From positions 32,324-48,185 of the forward strand of contig JAHCML010000005.1 of assembly GCA_019192455.1 (NCBI GenBank): a stretch of DNA of 15,862 nucleotides, read 5' to 3'. Below the pieces are notes generated by a model. That model made no database searches. It worked only from the letters and a program-made list of their open reading frames with translations, and was not told where the DNA came from. This DNA is from Alphaproteobacteria bacterium SS10 (GTDB taxonomy: Bacteria > Pseudomonadota > Alphaproteobacteria > TMED2). Position numbers and translations under genes: made by a program. Below, one piece after another: positions 3 to 12,303 of this stretch (its first letter is position 1; each line of letters opens with the position of its first letter).

Positions 3-587
3 GATGCCGATCATGTTCGATTGATCGCGAGCGAGGGGCCCAGCAATTGGCAACAACCACGCAGCATGCCACTCGCCGATGGTCGAACCTATCTCGACGG
101 CTTCGACAGCGTAATCCCACGTGGCGATATCTCGGTTGCTGGCAGCGTGCAGGGCGACAACATCACCATGGTTGCGGGCACGATTGAGATTGCAGGTGGC
201 GCCATGGGTGACATCGACCTGCAAGCCTCCCAAGGCGAAGTGGCGGCAATGCGCATCGCCGACGGTCTTGGGCTTAACTACGTCACCTATCCCGGTGATC
301 AGGATGTGCCACGCATCATGCGATCCTACGATCTGCCAGCAGAGATGGTCGCAGCACAGAGCATTCCAGACACTGACGTCACAGAGATGGGCCGCTGGCC
401 AATTCAGTCAGCCGAGGTATCGATCAGCATTGGCGGCATCACCGGCGATGAGGTCGTTATGCGCACACCGCGCGATGCCGCATTAGAACCAGCTGAACCT
501 AGTATCCTTGGTCAGGCCATTGCCGCTGTCGCTAATCGCCTGCCTGGATTTGATGGCATACCGGTACGGGCTGTTGGTGGGCCCTAG
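3..587 (+). CDS. Hypothetical beta-solenoid-like repeat protein, 5'-partial. It is a paralogue of the 1851-2819 product.
   Basis: The frame is open back to the window edge, with no stop between position 3 and the TTG at 21. The C-terminal 150 aa align with the C-terminus of the 1851-2819 protein: ITMVAGTIEIAGGAMGDIDLQASQGEVAA against IAITAGEITIGGEAQGQITLSASGGEVAG, and ISIGGITGDEVV against INIGGEVGPDVV. Short G-x-[IV]-x repeats resemble a bactofilin or beta-helix, but no homology search was possible. Confidence 0.5.
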   Translation, partial: DADHVRLIASEGPSNWQQPRSMPLADGRTYLDGFDSVIPRGDISVAGSVQGDNITMVAGTIEIAGGAMGDIDLQASQGEVAAMRIADGLGLNYVTYPGDQDVPRIMRSYDLPAEMVAAQSIPDTDVTEMGRWPIQSAEVSISIGGITGDEVVMRTPRDAALEPAEPSILGQAIAAVANRLPGFDGIPVRAVGGP

Positions 588-631
588 GGGCACGGACTGA
601 TTGACGTAAGTTGAGGTGTGGGGGCAGCTCA

Positions 632-1717
632 ATGGGGGCATTTCAAGGCAAGCAATTCCGAGGTGGCATCCTGCGTCAGCTATCCATGACGCGGGGCATC
701 ATCGGTGTTCTGTCTGCGCCGCTGCCAGTTGCCGCCGCTGGTGCAACCCATGAAACCCCAGCCATCACTGATCCAGATGCTGGCGTCCGCCTGAACAGTG
801 CGTCGCTTGAGCGTTGGCGCGCGAAGAACCGCGATAACTGCCTGATGCCGGGTGAGGCACCAGACAGCAAGACTGAGCAGCTGTTGAACAGGTTCTATGG
901 CTATATCCGTCAGTCAGAGCTCGCGGATCGGCTGTACCAAGATTTGTCTGGTGGTACCGCCACCCTTTGCACCAATGCAGCAACGAAAATCCCGGCATCA
1001 GCGGCCGCCATCTACCTCATTGGTCAGGACGCGGCGATCATCAACGCGAATGGTGCCGGTGGCCGCGTGGTGTTGAGTGGCCTGCATGAGCTTCGCCATG
1101 GGTGGCAGGATCAAAACCGCCTGCTTGACCGGATGTTGGCAGAGACGAAGCAGAACCGGTTTGCGGCCCTCTATATGGTTGAGGCGGATGCCGCTGCCTT
1201 CGCGGTTGCTGGCGCCTACCAGTTAAAGCAGGCCGGTGCGACGGAGGCCTGGGAGGCCGCGCAGAAGAGCCCAACCTATAAGCCGCTGACCGAGGCGTTT
1301 GAGCGTGAGATTGGCACGATCCCCGATGGTGCCAAGCTTTCCGATGGCCAGATCCGGCGCGGCATGCAGGGCGCCTTTCACGCTTGGTTCGACAACTCTG
1401 GTTTGGACAAGGCCTATACCGACCGACACCTAGAGGGTTGGCGTTCGGTCGCTGATAGCGGCATAGGGCGTGCTGTGAACATCCGACAGCTTGCGATGGA
1501 GCTGGGCAAGCTGCCCGGCAGTGGTGGCCGGCCAAGCCCCAGTTACATGGGCATTCAAGAGATCAAGAAGGCCCAGAGCCGGGCACTCGAATTGGTTGAG
1601 CGTCAGCAAACCTCGCCACGCGACAACCCGGTGGGCAATCCTTTACTGACCTCTGATGGCAAACCCGAGGGGCCCAAACGTGTGCCCGTGCCTGGCTCGT
1701 CCAGCGGCGCAATCTAA
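632..1717 (+). CDS. Hypothetical secreted protein with an HExxH zinc-metallopeptidase-like motif.
   Basis: Long ORF with GC-rich codon usage. An ATG at 632 is preceded by GAGGTG at 614-619. There is a hydrophobic N-terminal segment (IIGVLSAPLPVAAAGA). A LHELRHGW (HExxH) motif sits mid-protein, with a downstream Glu-rich region. The start is uncertain: ATG 632 or ATG 686. Confidence 0.55.
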   Translation: MGAFQGKQFRGGILRQLSMTRGIIGVLSAPLPVAAAGATHETPAITDPDAGVRLNSASLERWRAKNRDNCLMPGEAPDSKTEQLLNRFYGYIRQSELADRLYQDLSGGTATLCTNAATKIPASAAAIYLIGQDAAIINANGAGGRVVLSGLHELRHGWQDQNRLLDRMLAETKQNRFAALYMVEADAAAFAVAGAYQLKQAGATEAWEAAQKSPTYKPLTEAFEREIGTIPDGAKLSDGQIRRGMQGAFHAWFDNSGLDKAYTDRHLEGWRSVADSGIGRAVNIRQLAMELGKLPGSGGRPSPSYMGIQEIKKAQSRALELVERQQTSPRDNPVGNPLLTSDGKPEGPKRVPVPGSSSGAI

Positions 1718-4300: not shown

Positions 4301-4528
4301 GATCTGCCAGGGCGATGCCTGGTCAATCAGGTGTTGGGGGTTGGGGCACGGAACCGGCGGCTCGGGCCGCAAAGACCGGCAGCTGGGGGAGGGTTGTGTT
4401 GCCCTGCTCGCTAGACCCCGACGCTGTTCACCAATGGTAAATTCCCAAGGGCAATCAACGCCGGCGCGTTGCAGGGCGCGGCAACATCCCGTCCATCCGG
4501 GCTAGTTTTGGAGACCGTCACAGGGTCG

Positions 4529-4600
4529 TGCAAAGCGTGGGAATCGAACCCACAACAATCAGATCCTGAGTCTGATGCTCTACCGTTGAGCTAGCTTGCT
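4529..4600 (-). tRNA. tRNA-like element or tRNA pseudogene: class-I cloverleaf with anticodon CAG and a defective acceptor stem.
   Basis: The minus strand reads AGCAAGC-TA-GCTC-AACGGTA-GAGC-A-TCAGA-CTCAGGA-TCTGA-TTGTT-GTGGG-TTCGATT-CCCAC-GCTTTGC-A (72 nt). D-arm, anticodon arm, 5-nt variable loop and T-arm are canonical. The acceptor pairs only if one A is added to the 5' strand (GCAAGC against GCTTTGC). CAG would decode Leu, but Leu tRNAs are class II with a long variable arm. Confidence 0.45.
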
Positions 4601-7520: not shown

Positions 7521-7533
7521 TAGCGGTGTTAGG

Positions 7534-7565
7534 AAGCCCGGGGGTCAATGCTCCCGGGCTTTTCC
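7534..7565 (+). terminator. Rho-independent terminator of the ABC transporter gene.
   Basis: aagcccggg-ggtcaatgct-cccgggctt followed by tttcc, 14 nt after the stop codon. Confidence 0.65.
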
Positions 7566-7602
7566 TGCTTCACATCAGAATAAAGTATACGATAAGTATT
7601 TT

Positions 7603-7693
7603 TGGTGGGTCGCCAAGGAATCGAACCTCTCGCTGTAACCACCCCAAGATTTTACAGCACAGCGTTTACAGCGCCGCATGGGGAAAGCGACCC
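7603..7693 (-). tRNA. tRNA-derived element (91 nt, CCA encoded): Tyr-like anticodon stem-loop, no foldable D-arm, oversized variable hairpin. Probably a pseudo-tRNA or remnant.
   Basis: The minus strand reads GGGTCGC...GCGACCC-A-CCA, a perfect 7-bp acceptor, with T-arm AGAGG-TTCGATT-CCTTG. The internal hairpin CGGCG-CTGTAAA-CGCTG gives anticodon GTA. Only 7 nt separate acceptor and anticodon arm, so there is no D-arm. The motif GCTGTAAA is duplicated and forms a 7-bp variable hairpin. Confidence 0.45.
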
Positions 7694-7843
7694 AAGAGTA
7701 ACTAATTTTGATGTGTGAATTTGGCACGCAGTCTCACCGCAGCGGGATTTTCCCGCTGCGCTAAAAATTAACTGCAATAATAATATATAAGAGCGTGCAT
7801 AGCCCGATAAATGACCGTTTTTTAATCGTAAGTCAAATTTAAA

Positions 7844-7861
7844 TTCGATGTATTTACATCG
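7844..7861 (-). terminator. Putative terminator hairpin of the AT-rich orphan gene.
   Basis: tcgatgt-attt-acatcga (7-bp stem) lies 30 nt downstream of the stop at 7892 on the minus strand and is followed by an A/T-rich tract (auuuaaauuu). Confidence 0.35.
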
Positions 7862-7891
7862 AGCGGCCCTAGCGTCGGTTGGCCAATGGCT

Positions 7892-8708
7892 TTATCGTTG
7901 CCGCATAAGCCAGTTCCTAACTTCCCGCATAGACTCGTTGAACTCGCGAGGGTGCCAAGGAAGCTCTAGAGATTCTTCAATTGGTCGTGCACACTCAAGC
8001 ATTCTGATGCCATCCCATCTTTTGAGCACGTAGATAGCCAGATCCTCGCTGCTCATTTTGCCGATACTACTCTTTAGATGAGAGAGCATTTCGCTCGGCA
8101 TTGATTTGACGATTTTTTTGGCAAATTTGCTTATTTCTTTTTGGGTTTTATTTTCTATATTTTCTATTTCTTGTCTTTTCCATAATGAATTTATGAACAT
8201 ATAGGCTGATATTTTGTTTTTACATTTGTACATGTCCCCTTTTTTATGTACAAAATCATTTATTTTGAATGATTCCATCAATTTTCGATATAAATTATTA
8301 TTGGGTGTAAAGTATTCTATGCTGCTACTCACCCAGCCAAATTGGTAGGAATTTTCCAGTATTATATTAATAGACCTATCAATATCTTGTTCTGATAAAT
8401 TTGGCATTGAAATTATCAGCTCATGTATAAGATCTGATTCAATGATTTGTTCGGATATTCCTTTTTCAAAATCACTTTCTATTATGTTGTATTCTACTAG
8501 AAGGTAATATGCGCGTTCGCCGCTCGACACATATCCCGTTTCAATTTGGTATGCTTTGCGATTGTCGCACCACCATCTTGGAAGGCTGTCGGCTAAGAAA
8601 CCCAGTATTGTGCTTAGGAGTAAGATCTGATCATCAGTTGCTTTCTCTGAAATCATCGACGAATCCTCAATCACGTAGTTGTTCTCAGTGAGGTTTTCGG
8701 TGGCCATT
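7892..8708 (-). CDS. Orphan hypothetical protein encoded in an AT-rich (foreign) islet.
   Basis: About 272-aa ORF at roughly 30% GC, against about 60% in the flanks. The likely start is ATG at 8708 (MATENLTENNYVIEDSS), with GGGAGGGAG about 15 nt upstream. The ORF track's 359-aa version extends the frame into unrelated GC-rich DNA. The protein is I/N/K/E/S-rich with no recognisable motif. Confidence 0.6.
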
Positions 8709-8765
8709 GATCCCGCGCCTATCTCCCTCCCATGAGAGAGAGTACGGTAAAAAGCCGCCATCGAC

Positions 8766-8860
8766 CGACCAATAAATGCAGGTCTATTACGATGGGTCTT
8801 GTCCCTTACGTCGTAAGGAGTTCGCCTGGTATGGGCGCCGGGAGATTGAGGCGCCAATCT
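8766..8860 (+). pseudogene. Duplicated 5' fragment of the DUF393/DCC thiol-disulfide oxidoreductase gene.
   Basis: About 90% nucleotide identity over about 85-95 bp with 9654-9740. It encodes MQVYYDGSCPLRRKEFAWYGRREIEA, against MQVYYDGSCPLCRKEIAWYERRGIEA in the intact gene. The second Cys of CxxC is lost and similarity ends after about 28 codons. Confidence 0.6.
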
Positions 8861-8947
8861 GCCCGGTCCTAATTGTTTTCCCGCTTTCACTGGTTGAGCG
8901 TAAACGCGACGGATACCCGAAACACTATGGTTACAAGGATCAGCGCC

Positions 8948-9574
8948 ATGGCCACCGGATATCCCTTGCAAGATGATGAGCTAACCCAGGCTGACTTCGC
9001 CATCGCCTTGAGTGCGATGCCGACCCATAAGAGCCATTGGAGTGCGACGGATGAACGGCGGGCGCTGTATCTCGATCTGGCTCGAATGTCCGAGGGGCTG
9101 ACCTTCATCGATGAGGCGCGTGGTTTTCGCTTCCCCTGCGTCCGGGCCAGCTTCGGATATCTTGAAGACATCATGGCCGCGATCCCGCAGGCCGCCGTTC
9201 AGGCCGGTGCCATCTCCAATGAGATGGGCATATTTCAGGGTCGTCATGATTCAATCGTCGAAGATCAGAAGGGTGGCTATGCCGCTGGCGCTCAAGCGCC
9301 CTCCATCCGCGCTGCCCTGCTCTATGACGTGAAGAAGGATGAGGTGGTTGGCCTATCCGGTGCCGGTCGGGTTGCGCTGGCGATGCTAGACGCGGAATTC
9401 TCCGGACAGTTCTCCCCGCAGAATTTGCGCGAGCGAGGCCTCGACTATTTCAATAAGCAGTTGGAGGCAGCCGGGTTCGACCCCATGACCATGCCAGCGC
9501 CCAAGGCTGACCGGCAGGGGGCGGCACCCAAGCCAGATGCACCCGACGGCACCGGTCGGCCCATGCGGCCCTAG
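8948..9574 (+). CDS. Hypothetical protein.
   Basis: GC-rich ORF. ATG at 8948 with AAGGAT 8 nt upstream. Alternative starts at 8927 or TTG 8873. No recognisable motif; the C-terminus is Pro/Ala-rich. Confidence 0.5.
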   Translation: MATGYPLQDDELTQADFAIALSAMPTHKSHWSATDERRALYLDLARMSEGLTFIDEARGFRFPCVRASFGYLEDIMAAIPQAAVQAGAISNEMGIFQGRHDSIVEDQKGGYAAGAQAPSIRAALLYDVKKDEVVGLSGAGRVALAMLDAEFSGQFSPQNLRERGLDYFNKQLEAAGFDPMTMPAPKADRQGAAPKPDAPDGTGRPMRP

Positions 9575-9623
9575 GTCAACGCGACCCCCTCGTCTTCGGC
9601 TTATTCGCCCCTATCTTGGTGGC

Positions 9624-9998
9624 ATGAGCAAACCAGCCGACCAACAGCAACAAATGCAGGTCTATTACGACGGGTCTTGCCCCCTATGTCGTAAGGAGAT
9701 CGCCTGGTATGAGCGCCGGGGGATTGAGGCCGCCATGTGTGATGTGAGTGAGGCTGCTAATGTACCCGGCGATCTGACGCCCGAGGCCGCCATGGCGCGG
9801 TTTCATGTGCGCGATACCGATGGTCGGCTGCTCTCCGGCGCTGAGGCGTTTGTCGCCACCTGGCGGGTAACGCCGGGGCTGAAATGGCTGGCCGTCCTGT
9901 GCCGGCCTAGGCCGGTTATCTGGGTACTGGAGCGGCTGTATCGCCTCTTCCTCCATATCCGCCCGCAGATCCAAAAATTTGCACGATCCCTAACCTGA
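9624..9998 (+). CDS. DUF393 / DCC-family thiol-disulfide oxidoreductase (YuxK-like).
   Basis: N-terminal MQVYYDGSCPLCRKEIAWYERRG with a CxxC motif, diagnostic of the family. About 124 aa from ATG 9624, which is the family size. The ORF-track start at 9537 is probably too far upstream. Confidence 0.75.
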   Translation: MSKPADQQQQMQVYYDGSCPLCRKEIAWYERRGIEAAMCDVSEAANVPGDLTPEAAMARFHVRDTDGRLLSGAEAFVATWRVTPGLKWLAVLCRPRPVIWVLERLYRLFLHIRPQIQKFARSLT

Positions 9999-10145
9999 TC
10001 CACCAATCTGTTTCCACCCGGCCCCATGGGCACCGCATTCACAATGCTGCTACAGCGTTGGTTCCCAACGCGAACGCGCTAGCACCCGGTCAGTCTCGGG
10101 ATTAGGGTGGTGGCAATCTGTTCTCGCAAAAATGAAGACACTGCC

Positions 10146-10853: not shown

Positions 10854-11981
10854 ATGAGTGACGAAACCAAGGCTGGTTCTGCTAAAGGTGATGTTGCGGC
10901 AATAATCCGCGCGGCGTTCCGCGAGGGTTGGATGGCCCGGCATCAGCTTCGCGAGCCGGATGAGAACGATGTGGAGAATGACTGGATCATCTCTGAGGCG
11001 CGCAAGGCGGGAACCAGTGAATTCAAGGCGGTGACGCCAGAGTTAGTCCGCGACTGCTACCGCGCCCTGCTAAAGCGTGAGCCAGAGAACGATGATGTCG
11101 TTGCGGCCAGGGTTGCGGGGACGTCGAGCGTCTCTGATTTGCTCGAATCCTTCCGTCGATCACCAGAGCTGCTGCACCGGGCCTATATTGAGTATCTGCG
11201 GCGGCACAGCCCAGCGCTCAAGCCAAAGCCCCGGTTCGATCTCGATATAGCGCCGGACCAATTCAACCGATTGTTTGAAAGAGTAGTCACCCAATGGAGT
11301 GACCTTGGTCAGGCCGAGCCCTATTGGTCCGTGCTGACAGATGAGAAGTACAAAAGCGATGCGATTGATGAGGAGGTGCGGCAACGCTTCTACGACACTG
11401 GGAAGGATCTAGAACGGGAATTGAGACAGCTCCACGCCCGCAATGACGTGGCTTTTCAGGGTGGTGTCTGCTTGGAGCTCGGCGCGGGTGTCGGACGGTT
11501 AACCACCACATTGGCAAAGATGTTTGATCGGGTTATTGCGGTCGACATCTCACCGGGGAACCTAGAGATATGCAGAAAACATCTAGAGAAAAATAATATA
11601 GATAATGTCGATTTCAAAATTATATCCAACCCAGAACAGATTGGTGAATTAGAAAATTTTGATTATTTTTATTCGTTAATGGTGCTGCAGCATAATCCGC
11701 CGCCAATTCAAGAGTATATACTGGATATAATATTTAGAAATCTGAATGAAGGTGGGTTTGTTAATTTTCAACTGCCAACCAGTACGCCAGAATACCAGTT
11801 TGATATTGAGGCTTATTTGAGCTCATCACGCCAGGTTATGGATATGCATGATTTACCCATGAGTCGCGTATTCAGGCTTTTCCAGCGTCATGAAATCTTA
11901 CCGATAGATGTGATTATGGATAGCCACACGGGCACGTTTGGATCTCATAGCTTCTTCGGCCAAAAGCGGTCGGGGTCTTGA
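10854..11981 (+). CDS. Class I SAM-dependent methyltransferase with an N-terminal domain of about 200 aa. Compositional mosaic.
   Basis: Motif I LELGAGVGRLT, post-I acidic VIAVDIS, DYFYSLMVLQH and LNEGGFVNFQLP. It starts 13 nt after the GST stop. GC drops from about 60% to about 35% at about 11560 and recovers at about 11920, all within one intact frame. Confidence 0.75.
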   Translation: MSDETKAGSAKGDVAAIIRAAFREGWMARHQLREPDENDVENDWIISEARKAGTSEFKAVTPELVRDCYRALLKREPENDDVVAARVAGTSSVSDLLESFRRSPELLHRAYIEYLRRHSPALKPKPRFDLDIAPDQFNRLFERVVTQWSDLGQAEPYWSVLTDEKYKSDAIDEEVRQRFYDTGKDLERELRQLHARNDVAFQGGVCLELGAGVGRLTTTLAKMFDRVIAVDISPGNLEICRKHLEKNNIDNVDFKIISNPEQIGELENFDYFYSLMVLQHNPPPIQEYILDIIFRNLNEGGFVNFQLPTSTPEYQFDIEAYLSSSRQVMDMHDLPMSRVFRLFQRHEILPIDVIMDSHTGTFGSHSFFGQKRSGS

Positions 11982-11997
11982 GGCGCGGCGTTCGAAT

Positions 11998-12303
11998 ATG
12001 AGCCCTGATGAATTGGCGGCGGGCCGCGTCTACCTTACCGGCCATATCGATGTGCCGGCGGATCGCCTGACAGCGGTTCGCGATGCGCTGGATGAGCACA
12101 TCGCCCTGACCCGGGCAGAGCCGGGCTGTCTGTCATTTGACGTGGTGGAGCAGGATGACCCGCCAGGTCGGTTCTCGGTGGCTGAAGTCTTTGAGAACCA
12201 GCAAGCCTTCGATGCCCATCAGGAACGGACCAAACAGTCAGCTTGGTTCCAGGTAACCGAGCGGATTCCCCGGCATTACACAATCACGACCAAGGCGGAT
12301 TAG
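11998..12303 (+). CDS. Antibiotic-biosynthesis-monooxygenase (ABM/Dabb) domain protein.
   Basis: About 101 aa from ATG 11998. FENQQAFDAHQERTKQSAWFQ is typical of ABM-fold proteins. Confidence 0.6.
   Translation: MSPDELAAGRVYLTGHIDVPADRLTAVRDALDEHIALTRAEPGCLSFDVVEQDDPPGRFSVAEVFENQQAFDAHQERTKQSAWFQVTERIPRHYTITTKAD

Follow-up and report, generated by a model that had tools for sequence, protein, structure and literature searches.

What kind of gene is a tRNA-like element that has an acceptor stem, an anticodon arm, a T arm and an encoded CCA and that standard tRNA detectors do not call? We examined such an element, 91 nt long, in a 15,862-nt stretch of DNA (here referred to as the window) from Alphaproteobacteria bacterium SS10, an alphaproteobacterial metagenome-assembled genome (MAG; contig JAHCML010000005.1). 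An earlier note on this DNA had offered three readings of it: a tRNA-Tyr pseudogene with an internal duplication and a lost D arm, a D-armless tRNA-like RNA, and a tRNA-derived attachment remnant. The analysis described here points to another answer. We consider it probable that the element is an intact gene for a noncanonical tRNA-Tyr(GUA) of a mainly phage-borne family, with an 8-bp acceptor stem and a 4-bp T stem (an 8/4 branch). The copy in the window is best read as a single gene that was acquired horizontally, along with AT-rich orphan DNA or beside it, and that lies in a variable hotspot of the MAG.

Sequence and features of the element

The element lies at positions 7603 to 7693 of the window, and the minus strand of this interval reads GGGUCGCUUUCCCCAUGCGGCGCUGUAAACGCUGUGCUGUAAAAUCUUGGGGUGGUUACAGCGAGAGGUUCGAUUCCUUGGCGACCCACCA (RNA position i corresponds to window coordinate 7694 - i). 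As the earlier note had recognized, the RNA contains a paired acceptor (GGGUCGC with GCGACCC) followed by a discriminator A and an encoded CCA, a T-loop (UUCGAUU), and a CGGCG-CUGUAAA-CGCUG hairpin. The distance between the 7-bp acceptor and the anticodon stem, put at 7 nt in that note, measures 10 nt, and there is no D stem-loop within it. The CCCCA(U) strand that follows the acceptor pairs with (U)UGGGG inside the loop of the variable arm. This pairing is here called helix A, and the variable-arm stem is called helix C. The minimum-energy fold contains the 8-bp acceptor, the 4-bp T stem, and a long arm in which the CCCCA-UGGGG pairing surrounds the GUA hairpin; the folding energy is only mildly unusual (z = -2.1). 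The features of the element are as follows.

7603..7693, minus strand: whole gene, probable noncanonical tRNA-Tyr(GUA), 91 nt with the encoded CCA counted; scored at 88.5 bits by the covariance model, E ~1e-23
7686..7693, minus strand: 5' strand of the acceptor, GGGUCGCU, RNA 1-8, paired with RNA 80-87
7684..7685, minus strand: connector UU, two nucleotides, RNA 9-10
7678..7683, minus strand: 5' strand of helix A, CCCCAU, RNA 11-16, the D-position strand, paired with RNA 47-52
7660..7676, minus strand: anticodon arm, RNA 18-34, stem CGGCG/CGCUG, loop CUGUAAA, with GUA at 7667-7669
7652..7659, minus strand: 5' strand of helix C; core UGCU (RNA 35-38, 7656-7659), paired with RNA 60-63
7648..7651, minus strand: linker AAUC, RNA 43-46, between the 5' strand of helix C and the 3' strand of helix A
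7642..7647, minus strand: 3' strand of helix A, UUGGGG, RNA 47-52, within the variable-arm loop
7639..7641, minus strand: UGG directly 3' of helix A, RNA 53-55, candidate counterpart of D-loop G18 G19
7631..7638, minus strand: 3' strand of helix C; core AGCG (RNA 60-63, 7631-7634), extended in this copy to UUACAGCG (RNA 56-63)
7615..7629, minus strand: T arm, RNA 65-79, stem GAGG/CCUU of 4 bp, loop UUCGAUU
7603..7614, minus strand: 3' strand of the acceptor, GGCGACCC (RNA 80-87), then A88 and CCA (RNA 89-91)

We compared the element with what standard detectors expect of a tRNA. ARAGORN made no call on it in standard, mitochondrial, relaxed, intron, or tmRNA modes. Rfam returned no match at gathering score and no match to the tRNA model RF00005 even at E <= 10. 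The element possesses a 5-bp anticodon stem, a 7-nt anticodon loop with U33 and a purine at position 37, a T-loop of the form UUCRANY, a discriminator, and a CCA end. What it lacks of the canonical RF00005 cloverleaf is the detector score, the D stem-loop, and the combination of a 7-bp acceptor with a 5-bp T stem. The earlier note had held that recovery of a standard cloverleaf by covariance models would count against its finding; none recovered one, and in that respect the finding stands. The best sub-threshold Rfam match, obtained with permissive settings, was tRNA-Sec (RF01852) at 21.6 bits against a gathering score of 47. We rejected a tRNA-Sec identity based on this score, on the anticodon (GUA, not UCA), and on the combined acceptor and T branch (12 bp, not 13 bp). 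The element is also not a tmRNA as judged by the ARAGORN tmRNA mode and the Rfam tmRNA models, which were negative. A permuted or two-piece tmRNA and an intron-containing tRNA were considered and dropped, as was a tRNA-Lys-derived chimera, an idea prompted by the similarity of the acceptor to that of E. coli tRNA-Lys.

A family of homologues

An exact search of viral contigs with the 25-nt 3' end of the element returned two contigs from one sample. Their element is also 91 nt long and has the acceptor and T arm of the window element around a different interior, so that the CCCCA...UGGGG of the window is CCUGUG...CACAGG in this first viral homologue. It has 13 tRNA genes around it, spaced as tRNA genes usually are, and neither ARAGORN nor Rfam calls it. 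An acceptor-anchored scan of metagenomes yielded L107, on a bacterial-looking contig, and L104; the same scan also gave ordinary class II tRNA-Tyr genes with an identical acceptor. L104 is a 4.4-kb metagenome contig (1-4421) that consists almost entirely of tRNA genes on both strands, with 22 ARAGORN calls plus the odd tRNA-Tyr and no ordinary tRNA-Tyr. When GenBank phages were searched by blastn, unannotated copies were identified in the cultured Pseudomonas phages Lyrsu01-03, SCYZ1, and Rembedalsseter, each directly upstream of the small terminase gene and each with a different acceptor sequence. In total, blastn and pattern scans, the last two of which were filtered with a covariance model, gave 44 hits that represent 37 distinct sequences (48 to 100 bits) from approximately 40 IMG/VR viral contigs, two metagenome contigs, and these cultured phages. 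As with the window element, Rfam made no call on seven other family members that we submitted, and it called the neighboring tRNAs.

The covariance model, R1, was built from the first seven sequences, with helix C left out. It scores its seven source sequences at 88 to 100 bits, and the canonical tRNAs of the loci to which it was applied, ordinary tRNA-Tyr included, at no more than 34.5 bits. R1 thus separates the two classes of tyrosine tRNA, with canonical tRNA-Tyr at 28 to 35 bits and the family at 48 to 100 bits. No match at E <= 1e-7 was found in 118 control viral loci (1.1 Mb in total). These loci came from a scan for members with other anticodons in which, among the matches listed, chance matches predominated, and they serve as a specificity control only.

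Several other searches delimit the family. Queries with three other family subtypes gave no blastn match in GenBank phages, and the window element had no match among plasmids. Phage tf, which is reported to have a tRNA-Tyr, contains no family member. Relatives of the phage represented by L084 and L085, found via the major head protein, mostly lack tRNA arrays. A scan of genome contigs that required both CTGTAAA copies of the window element and the T-loop gave no match; the doubled motif occurs in the window copy alone. The viral matches to the doubled-CTGTAAA pattern (L086-L089) were rejected as unrelated oddities. One of them, at L086 5920-6045 (plus strand) on a 185-kb viral contig, is a tRNA-like gene whose D arm and acceptor are normal but which has an insert of ~50 nt that carries two CTGTAAA motifs; it is not a family member.

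Secondary structure and covariation

We scored the base-pair positions across the 37 distinct sequences (999 cells) and used as controls the same alignment with pairing partners slid by 1 to 3 columns. Pairing was found in 97.5% of the 999 cells, compared with 40 to 51% in the slid controls. The covariation score was 0.723 (0.207 in shuffles), and 20 of the 27 pairs had changed on both sides across the 37 sequences. The changes are distributed over all five helices.

Acceptor stem: 8 bp, 98.3% of cells paired, 6 pairs changed on both sides
Helix A: 6 bp, 99.1% of cells paired, 4 pairs changed on both sides
Anticodon stem: 5 bp, 98.4% of cells paired, 5 pairs changed on both sides
Helix C (variable-arm stem): 4 bp, 91.9% of cells paired, 3 pairs changed on both sides
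T stem: 4 bp, 98.0% of cells paired, 2 pairs changed on both sides

Three further observations bear on how far the result depends on the model. A structure-blind MAFFT alignment of the first seven members gives the same picture. RNAalifold, which recovers the acceptor pairing independently, finds the 8-bp acceptor, helix A, the anticodon stem, and the 4-bp T stem in a 16-sequence alignment (A2), although this alignment was fitted to the model for its nested helices. Finally, the covariation of helix C is not forced by the model because this helix lies outside it.

The alignment also settles the stem lengths of the family. The earlier note had described a 7-bp acceptor, and those seven pairs do form, but the acceptor of the family comprises 8 bp. 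The eighth pair (U8-G80 in the window) is U-G, U-A, or C-G in 36 of 37 sequences, and the T stem has 4 bp. The bases that would add a fifth pair to the T stem do not pair in 27 of 37 sequences, which makes a 7/5 branch a worse fit than an 8/4 branch. Two nucleotides connect the acceptor to helix A: RNA position 9 is an invariant T in the seven-sequence alignment and in the rows of the larger one, and the next position is T, replaced by C in L084 only. The CCA is encoded in most members.

The region that would hold the D arm is built differently from that of the canonical cloverleaf. None of the 37 aligned members has a local D hairpin between its acceptor and anticodon stems. In its place, the D-position strand forms helix A with the variable-arm loop, and double changes such as CCUGUG/CACAGG, CCUGAC/GUCAGG, and CCCGCU/GGUGGG preserve this pairing; its two distal C-G pairs do not vary among the 37 sequences. 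The two strands of helix A are 30 to 40 nt apart and enclose the anticodon arm. Helix C starts directly after the anticodon stem and ends directly before the T stem. Helix A crosses helix C, and the core is therefore a pseudoknot. Ahead of the 3' strand of helix A, the linker is A rich and 7 to 12 nt long in most other members, and helix A is followed by GG in nearly all. Of the three readings in the earlier note, the D-armless tRNA-like RNA comes closest. There is indeed no D hairpin, but the D-position strand is engaged in a 6-bp helix that closes a pseudoknot, and the genomic context, described below, speaks for a real tRNA-Tyr and not just a tRNA-like RNA.

Tyrosine identity and tRNA arrays

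We then considered which amino acid the RNA would carry. GUA, U33, and A37 are present in all 37 sequences, as is G1-C72, and A73 is present in 36. The long variable arm with a stem that belongs to tyrosine identity is represented by the covarying 4-bp core of helix C, and its loop is engaged in helix A. For 30 of the 37 sequences, the search pattern already contained TGTAA or CTGTAAA; the seven members found without the anticodon in the query all have GUA.

In its identity elements the family resembles bacterial class II tRNA-Tyr, such as those of Stenotrophomonas phage Moby and viral contig L090: both have GUA in a CUGUAAA loop, G1-C72, A73, a variable-arm stem, and a canonical T-loop. The acceptor GGGUCGC/GCGACCC is common to the element and some canonical phage tRNA-Tyr genes. 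The element lacks both the 7/5 branch of canonical class II tRNA-Tyr and its D hairpin, the loop of which contains GG. Annotation of the canonical genes themselves is uneven. In MZ398248.1 (L124 240-323), the canonical class II tRNA-Tyr of a Stenotrophomonas Menderavirus is labeled "tRNA-Pseudo-GTA / tRNA-OTHER," and sister records such as MN095772.1 (L123 1440-1526) label it tRNA-Tyr. Annotation tools treat even ordinary phage tRNA-Tyr genes as borderline.

Most of the family members are placed within phage tRNA arrays in the manner of other tRNA genes, and ordinary tRNA-Tyr is depleted in these arrays. The 44 member loci contain 380 tRNAs called by ARAGORN, 4 of them Tyr, compared with 26 Tyr among 640 in the 118 control viral loci (Fisher p = 0.006). 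When only arrays of at least 10 tRNAs are counted, ordinary Tyr is found in 2 of 16 member arrays and in 17 of 28 control arrays (Fisher p = 0.004). The other amino acids are each represented by 10 to 35 tRNAs in the member loci, except Cys (6). On one 12.6-kb contig, the element heads an array of 28 tRNAs for 17 amino acids that includes no Tyr. Given this depletion together with the retained identity nucleotides for tyrosyl-tRNA synthetase (TyrRS), a working tRNA-Tyr is the best reading of the family. As a side observation, a viral contig with a tRNA array and the odd tRNA-Tyr also carries a tmRNA gene beside them (L151 4727-5082, minus strand; tag ANYDAIPQAA).

The same data can be set against the idea that the family mimics tRNA-Tyr, i.e., that it is a decoy or sponge, charged or not, that diverts defense nucleases directed at tRNA-Tyr, or other factors that bind tRNA, from the tRNA-Tyr of the host. 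Such a role would suit a core unlike that of any tRNA known to work on bacterial ribosomes and the presence of ordinary tRNA-Tyr alongside the element in three distinct members (four loci). In addition, tRNA-Tyr is a documented target of Septu and retron-Eco7, and a decoy or supplementary role of phage tRNA-Tyr has been considered (PMC13096335). However, G1-C72, A73, CCA, U33, A37, the 7-nt anticodon loop, and the 12-bp branch are all conserved, and a decoy needs none of them. The depletion of ordinary tRNA-Tyr in the arrays fits replacement rather than supplementation, and the part of the molecule that has been rebuilt is the variable arm that the nucleases cut, which suits evasion better than bait. 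We regard a mimic as quite unlikely.

The window copy and its neighborhood

The family may be real and the copy in the window nonetheless dead. All helices are kept in this copy, and its score is in the middle of the family range. It has two peculiarities: a U16-U47 mismatch at the proximal end of helix A, and a helix C of 8 bp instead of 4 bp. The extension accounts for another claim of the earlier note, that a second copy of an anticodon-loop sequence builds a stem where the variable arm should be. The sequence GCUGUAAA does occur twice (7665-7672 and 7651-7658), and the second copy can pair with UUACAGC. What this pairing produces is merely a window-specific lengthening of the variable-arm stem, in which the 5' strand runs on to UGCUGUAA (RNA 35-42), containing the second GCUGUAA, and GCUGUAA/UUACAGC pairs are added. 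No other member is extended in this way, and the second GCTGTAAA copy is absent from all of them, including the closest relative, L107.

The comparison with L107 is informative about selection. L107 1266-1361 is 83% identical to window 7603-7694, the similarity stops at both gene ends, and the L107 copy is placed between unrelated genes in another genomic context. The differences between the two include one compensatory change in helix C and changes from G-U to G-C, a pattern that fits selection on the RNA in bacterial genomes.

Two features frame the locus.

7530..7567, plus strand: left edge of the variable region, outside the tRNA gene; a GC-rich hairpin with a T run behind it, located past the ABC transporter gene; relatives have a hairpin at the same place
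7892..8707, minus strand: AT-rich orphan open reading frame (ORF) of 271 amino acids upstream of the tRNA gene, in the AT-rich islet

The element is located 83 nt downstream of the ABC transporter gene, beyond this hairpin and T run. The product of that gene matches, at 100% identity, a protein from an NCBI "Alphaproteobacteria bacterium" MAG, and the window is a Logan contig of run SRR14140256. Upstream of the element on its own strand, the GC content drops to 0.27 to 0.31, so that the AT-rich DNA lies on its 5' side. Neither the 271-amino-acid ORF nor a neighboring ORF of 208 amino acids has a family in Pfam, PHROGs, PADLOC, or NCBIfam, and the sole homologue of the former is a fragment with 93% identity. 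Two relatives with synteny, L082 and L083 (ABC transporter identity of 78%), keep the gene order upstream, and the element is absent from both. The gap between the ABC transporter and GST genes (window 7570-10100; L082 12032-13700; L083 6252-6789) holds different AT-rich cargo in each: in L082 a DUF4238 gene and a HigB/HigA toxin-antitoxin pair, and in L083 other DNA. The relatives carry different cargo without the element; it is therefore not ancestral at this site, which is a variable hotspot. A search of genome contigs with the ABC transporter protein gave relatives at 32 to 57% identity, without synteny. The earlier note had looked to relatives as a check on its finding. The locus is indeed missing from the nearest syntenic ones, and the conservation of the family elsewhere outweighs that absence.

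These data allow us to weigh a dead passenger, i.e., a relic of a phage or mobile element in a recombination hotspot that is neither transcribed nor used. Its absence from the syntenic relatives, its position beside orphan AT-rich DNA in a region with other rearrangement scars (a 92-nt repeat, described below), the U-U mismatch in helix A, the 8-bp helix C, and the lack of a promoter-like site upstream are all consistent with this explanation. On the other side stand the intact helices and mid-range score, the compensatory and wobble-to-Watson-Crick differences from L107 with similarity that ends at the gene borders, which argue for selection on the RNA, and the weakness of a consensus promoter scan as evidence in an alphaproteobacterium. 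We judge a dead passenger to be unlikely.

The two remaining readings from the earlier note, a tRNA-derived attachment site and an internally duplicated tRNA-Tyr pseudogene, fare far worse. The element borders the AT-rich islet and contains GCTGTAAA twice, 14 nt apart, which is what had suggested them. Integrases that target tRNA genes leave their scars on the 3' side of the tRNA. Here, the islet is on the 5' side, the gene is full length, no integrase domain was found among the neighboring ORFs, and the window contains no second copy of the 3' end of the element, even with 3 mismatches allowed. The pseudogene is contradicted by the recurrence of the architecture in 37 distinct covarying sequences with compensatory changes in every helix, by the intact state of the window copy, and by a repeat that no homologue shares. 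Both explanations are very improbable, and an intact gene for a noncanonical tRNA-Tyr remains the preferred reading.

Other features of the window were noted in passing. A perfect GC-rich hairpin, GCGCAGCGGG-AAAA-CCCGCUGCG, is located at 7735-7760, 45 nt upstream of the tRNA gene, and on the tRNA strand a T run comes before it, not after it. A 92-nt direct repeat with 87% identity (8770-8861 and 9648-9739, plus strand) flanks the ORF at 8948-9574 (208 amino acids) and looks like a rearrangement or insertion scar; its second copy is in the 5' part of an ORF for a DCC1-like thiol-disulfide oxidoreductase, and its first copy is a stray fragment. A second GC dip, to 0.41, occurs at 11601-12000, at the end of a methyltransferase ORF. 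Tandem DUF6782 paralogues (putative metallopeptidases) lie upstream (window 21-1717, L001 1-6153), in a series shared with L082. The sole tRNA called by ARAGORN and Rfam in the window is a 72-nt tRNA-Leu(CAG) at 4528-4599 (minus strand). Bacterial tRNA-Leu is normally class II. This one has no long variable arm, has six nucleotides before U8 (and hence a 6-bp or bulged acceptor), and does not encode CCA. Genes for tRNA-Leu of 75 to 78 nt are also found in phage arrays with the odd tRNA-Tyr.

Discussion

The reading that we favor, an intact gene for a noncanonical 8/4 tRNA-Tyr, has to be weighed against several points that tell the other way. Helices A and C could be alternative pairings that do not coexist. 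Some members are close relatives of each other, so that counts over the 999 cells overstate the number of independent events, and the search patterns themselves contributed to the constancy of the anticodon loop in the 30 of 37 sequences collected with them. Ordinary tRNA-Tyr genes do occur near the element in the four loci mentioned above. Two points bear on this host in particular: the locus is missing from the two nearest syntenic relatives, and a consensus scan, which is weak evidence in an alphaproteobacterium, found no sigma-70-like promoter upstream of the window copy. Taken together with the covariation, the identity nucleotides, and the array context, these points leave the reading probable.

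How might such an RNA work? Its gene would be expressed and the transcript would be trimmed to the encoded CCA end. Judged by established tRNA geometry, helix A would stack on the anticodon stem at the place of the D stem, with its distal end where the D loop normally begins. The UGG after helix A would dock on the T-loop in the manner of G18 G19 (the G18-psi55 and G19-C56 elbow contacts), which would keep the L shape. Helix C would be placed like the stem of a class II variable arm, with its loop returning to give one strand of helix A. We infer that the stack made up of helix A (6 bp), a single nucleotide, and the anticodon stem (5 bp) is as long as the stacked D and anticodon stems of tRNA-Sec and allo-tRNAs. 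EF-Tu reads the 12-bp acceptor/T branch, and an 8/4 branch keeps 12 bp. Bacterial TyrRS would charge the RNA via G1-C72, A73, G34-U35, and the variable arm, and the RNA would read UAY codons. In phages, the element would be the tRNA-Tyr of the phage's tRNA set.

Three known groups of tRNAs share parts of this design. Mitochondrial D-armless tRNAs, such as metazoan tRNA-Ser(AGY), also lack a D hairpin between the acceptor and anticodon stems. They have a short unpaired loop in place of the D arm, have lost the elbow contacts, and need adapted factors. The element differs in that its D-position strand is paired, its T-loop is canonical, and GG is kept; the mitochondrial modes of ARAGORN were negative. 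tRNA-Sec (RF01852) resembles the element in its acceptor of 8 bp, in the 6 bp of its D-position helix, and in its long variable arm. The element differs from it in having GUA instead of UCA, a 12-bp instead of a 13-bp branch, and no D hairpin. The closest parallel is with the (8/4) tRNAs and allo-tRNAs, whose tRNA-Ser and tRNA-His members are known from phages and alphaproteobacteria (Mukai et al. 2017, Nucleic Acids Res 45:2776, PMC5389517). Like the element, these have a 12-bp branch split 8/4 instead of 7/5, a variable arm, and a 6-bp D-position helix; they occur in phage tRNA clusters and in an alphaproteobacterium and are missed or misscored by standard tools (PMC5389517). However, they have a contiguous long D stem with a tetraloop within an ordinary cloverleaf, whereas the D-position strands of the element are split by the anticodon arm and form a pseudoknot. 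The 8/4 species described there are Ser and His, plus Cys and Sec variants, and the main text contains neither "Tyr" nor "pseudoknot" (PMC5389517). No earlier description of a pseudoknotted tRNA-Tyr architecture was found in the literature searched, the coverage of which excludes most subscription journals.

The rebuilt core also suggests a selective pressure. T5 tRNA-Lys counters PARIS. Septu PtuAB and retron-Eco7 cut tRNA-Tyr in its variable loop or stem, and the tRNA-Tyr of T5 resists through a different variable loop (PMC13096335, PMC11555353). By analogy, the family consists of phage-borne tRNA-Tyr altered in the arm that these nucleases cut, and it is plausible that the rebuilt core lets it escape them. 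The counter-defense tRNAs of T5 are ordinary cloverleafs with sequence changes, and what would link the family to them is the selective pressure; we make no claim of membership. In its fullest form, the proposal is that a tRNA without a cloverleaf, with its D helix formed across a pseudoknot, works as the tyrosine tRNA of many phages and some bacteria and was rewired in phages against cleavage by Septu PtuAB and retron-Eco7. We put this forward as a tentative hypothesis, and a doubtful one in all of its parts together.

To our knowledge, elongator tRNAs outside organelles are taken to share the cloverleaf, and the exceptions that we know of (tRNA-Sec, the 8/4 and 9/3 allo-tRNAs, and tRNA-Pyl) alter stem lengths and not the order of the strands. 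If the reading is correct, the element has a new strand topology, that of a decoding tRNA that makes its D helix with the variable-arm loop, and the family would be a natural test of what the ribosome, EF-Tu, RNase P, TyrRS, and modification enzymes need of a tRNA core. It may also offer a new orthogonal scaffold for genetic-code engineering. The family exposes a blind spot of ARAGORN and the Rfam tRNA models. If it does work as tRNA-Tyr, standard annotation systematically undercounts phage tRNA-Tyr, and the family would explain the missing tRNA-Tyr genes of phage tRNA arrays and of the cultured phages Lyrsu01-03, SCYZ1, and Rembedalsseter. In the conflict between phages and hosts, it is a concrete candidate in the arms race around defense systems that cleave tRNA-Tyr. 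The window copy, for its part, indicates that a phage-type tRNA gene can reside on a chromosome at a place that annotation pipelines would leave blank.

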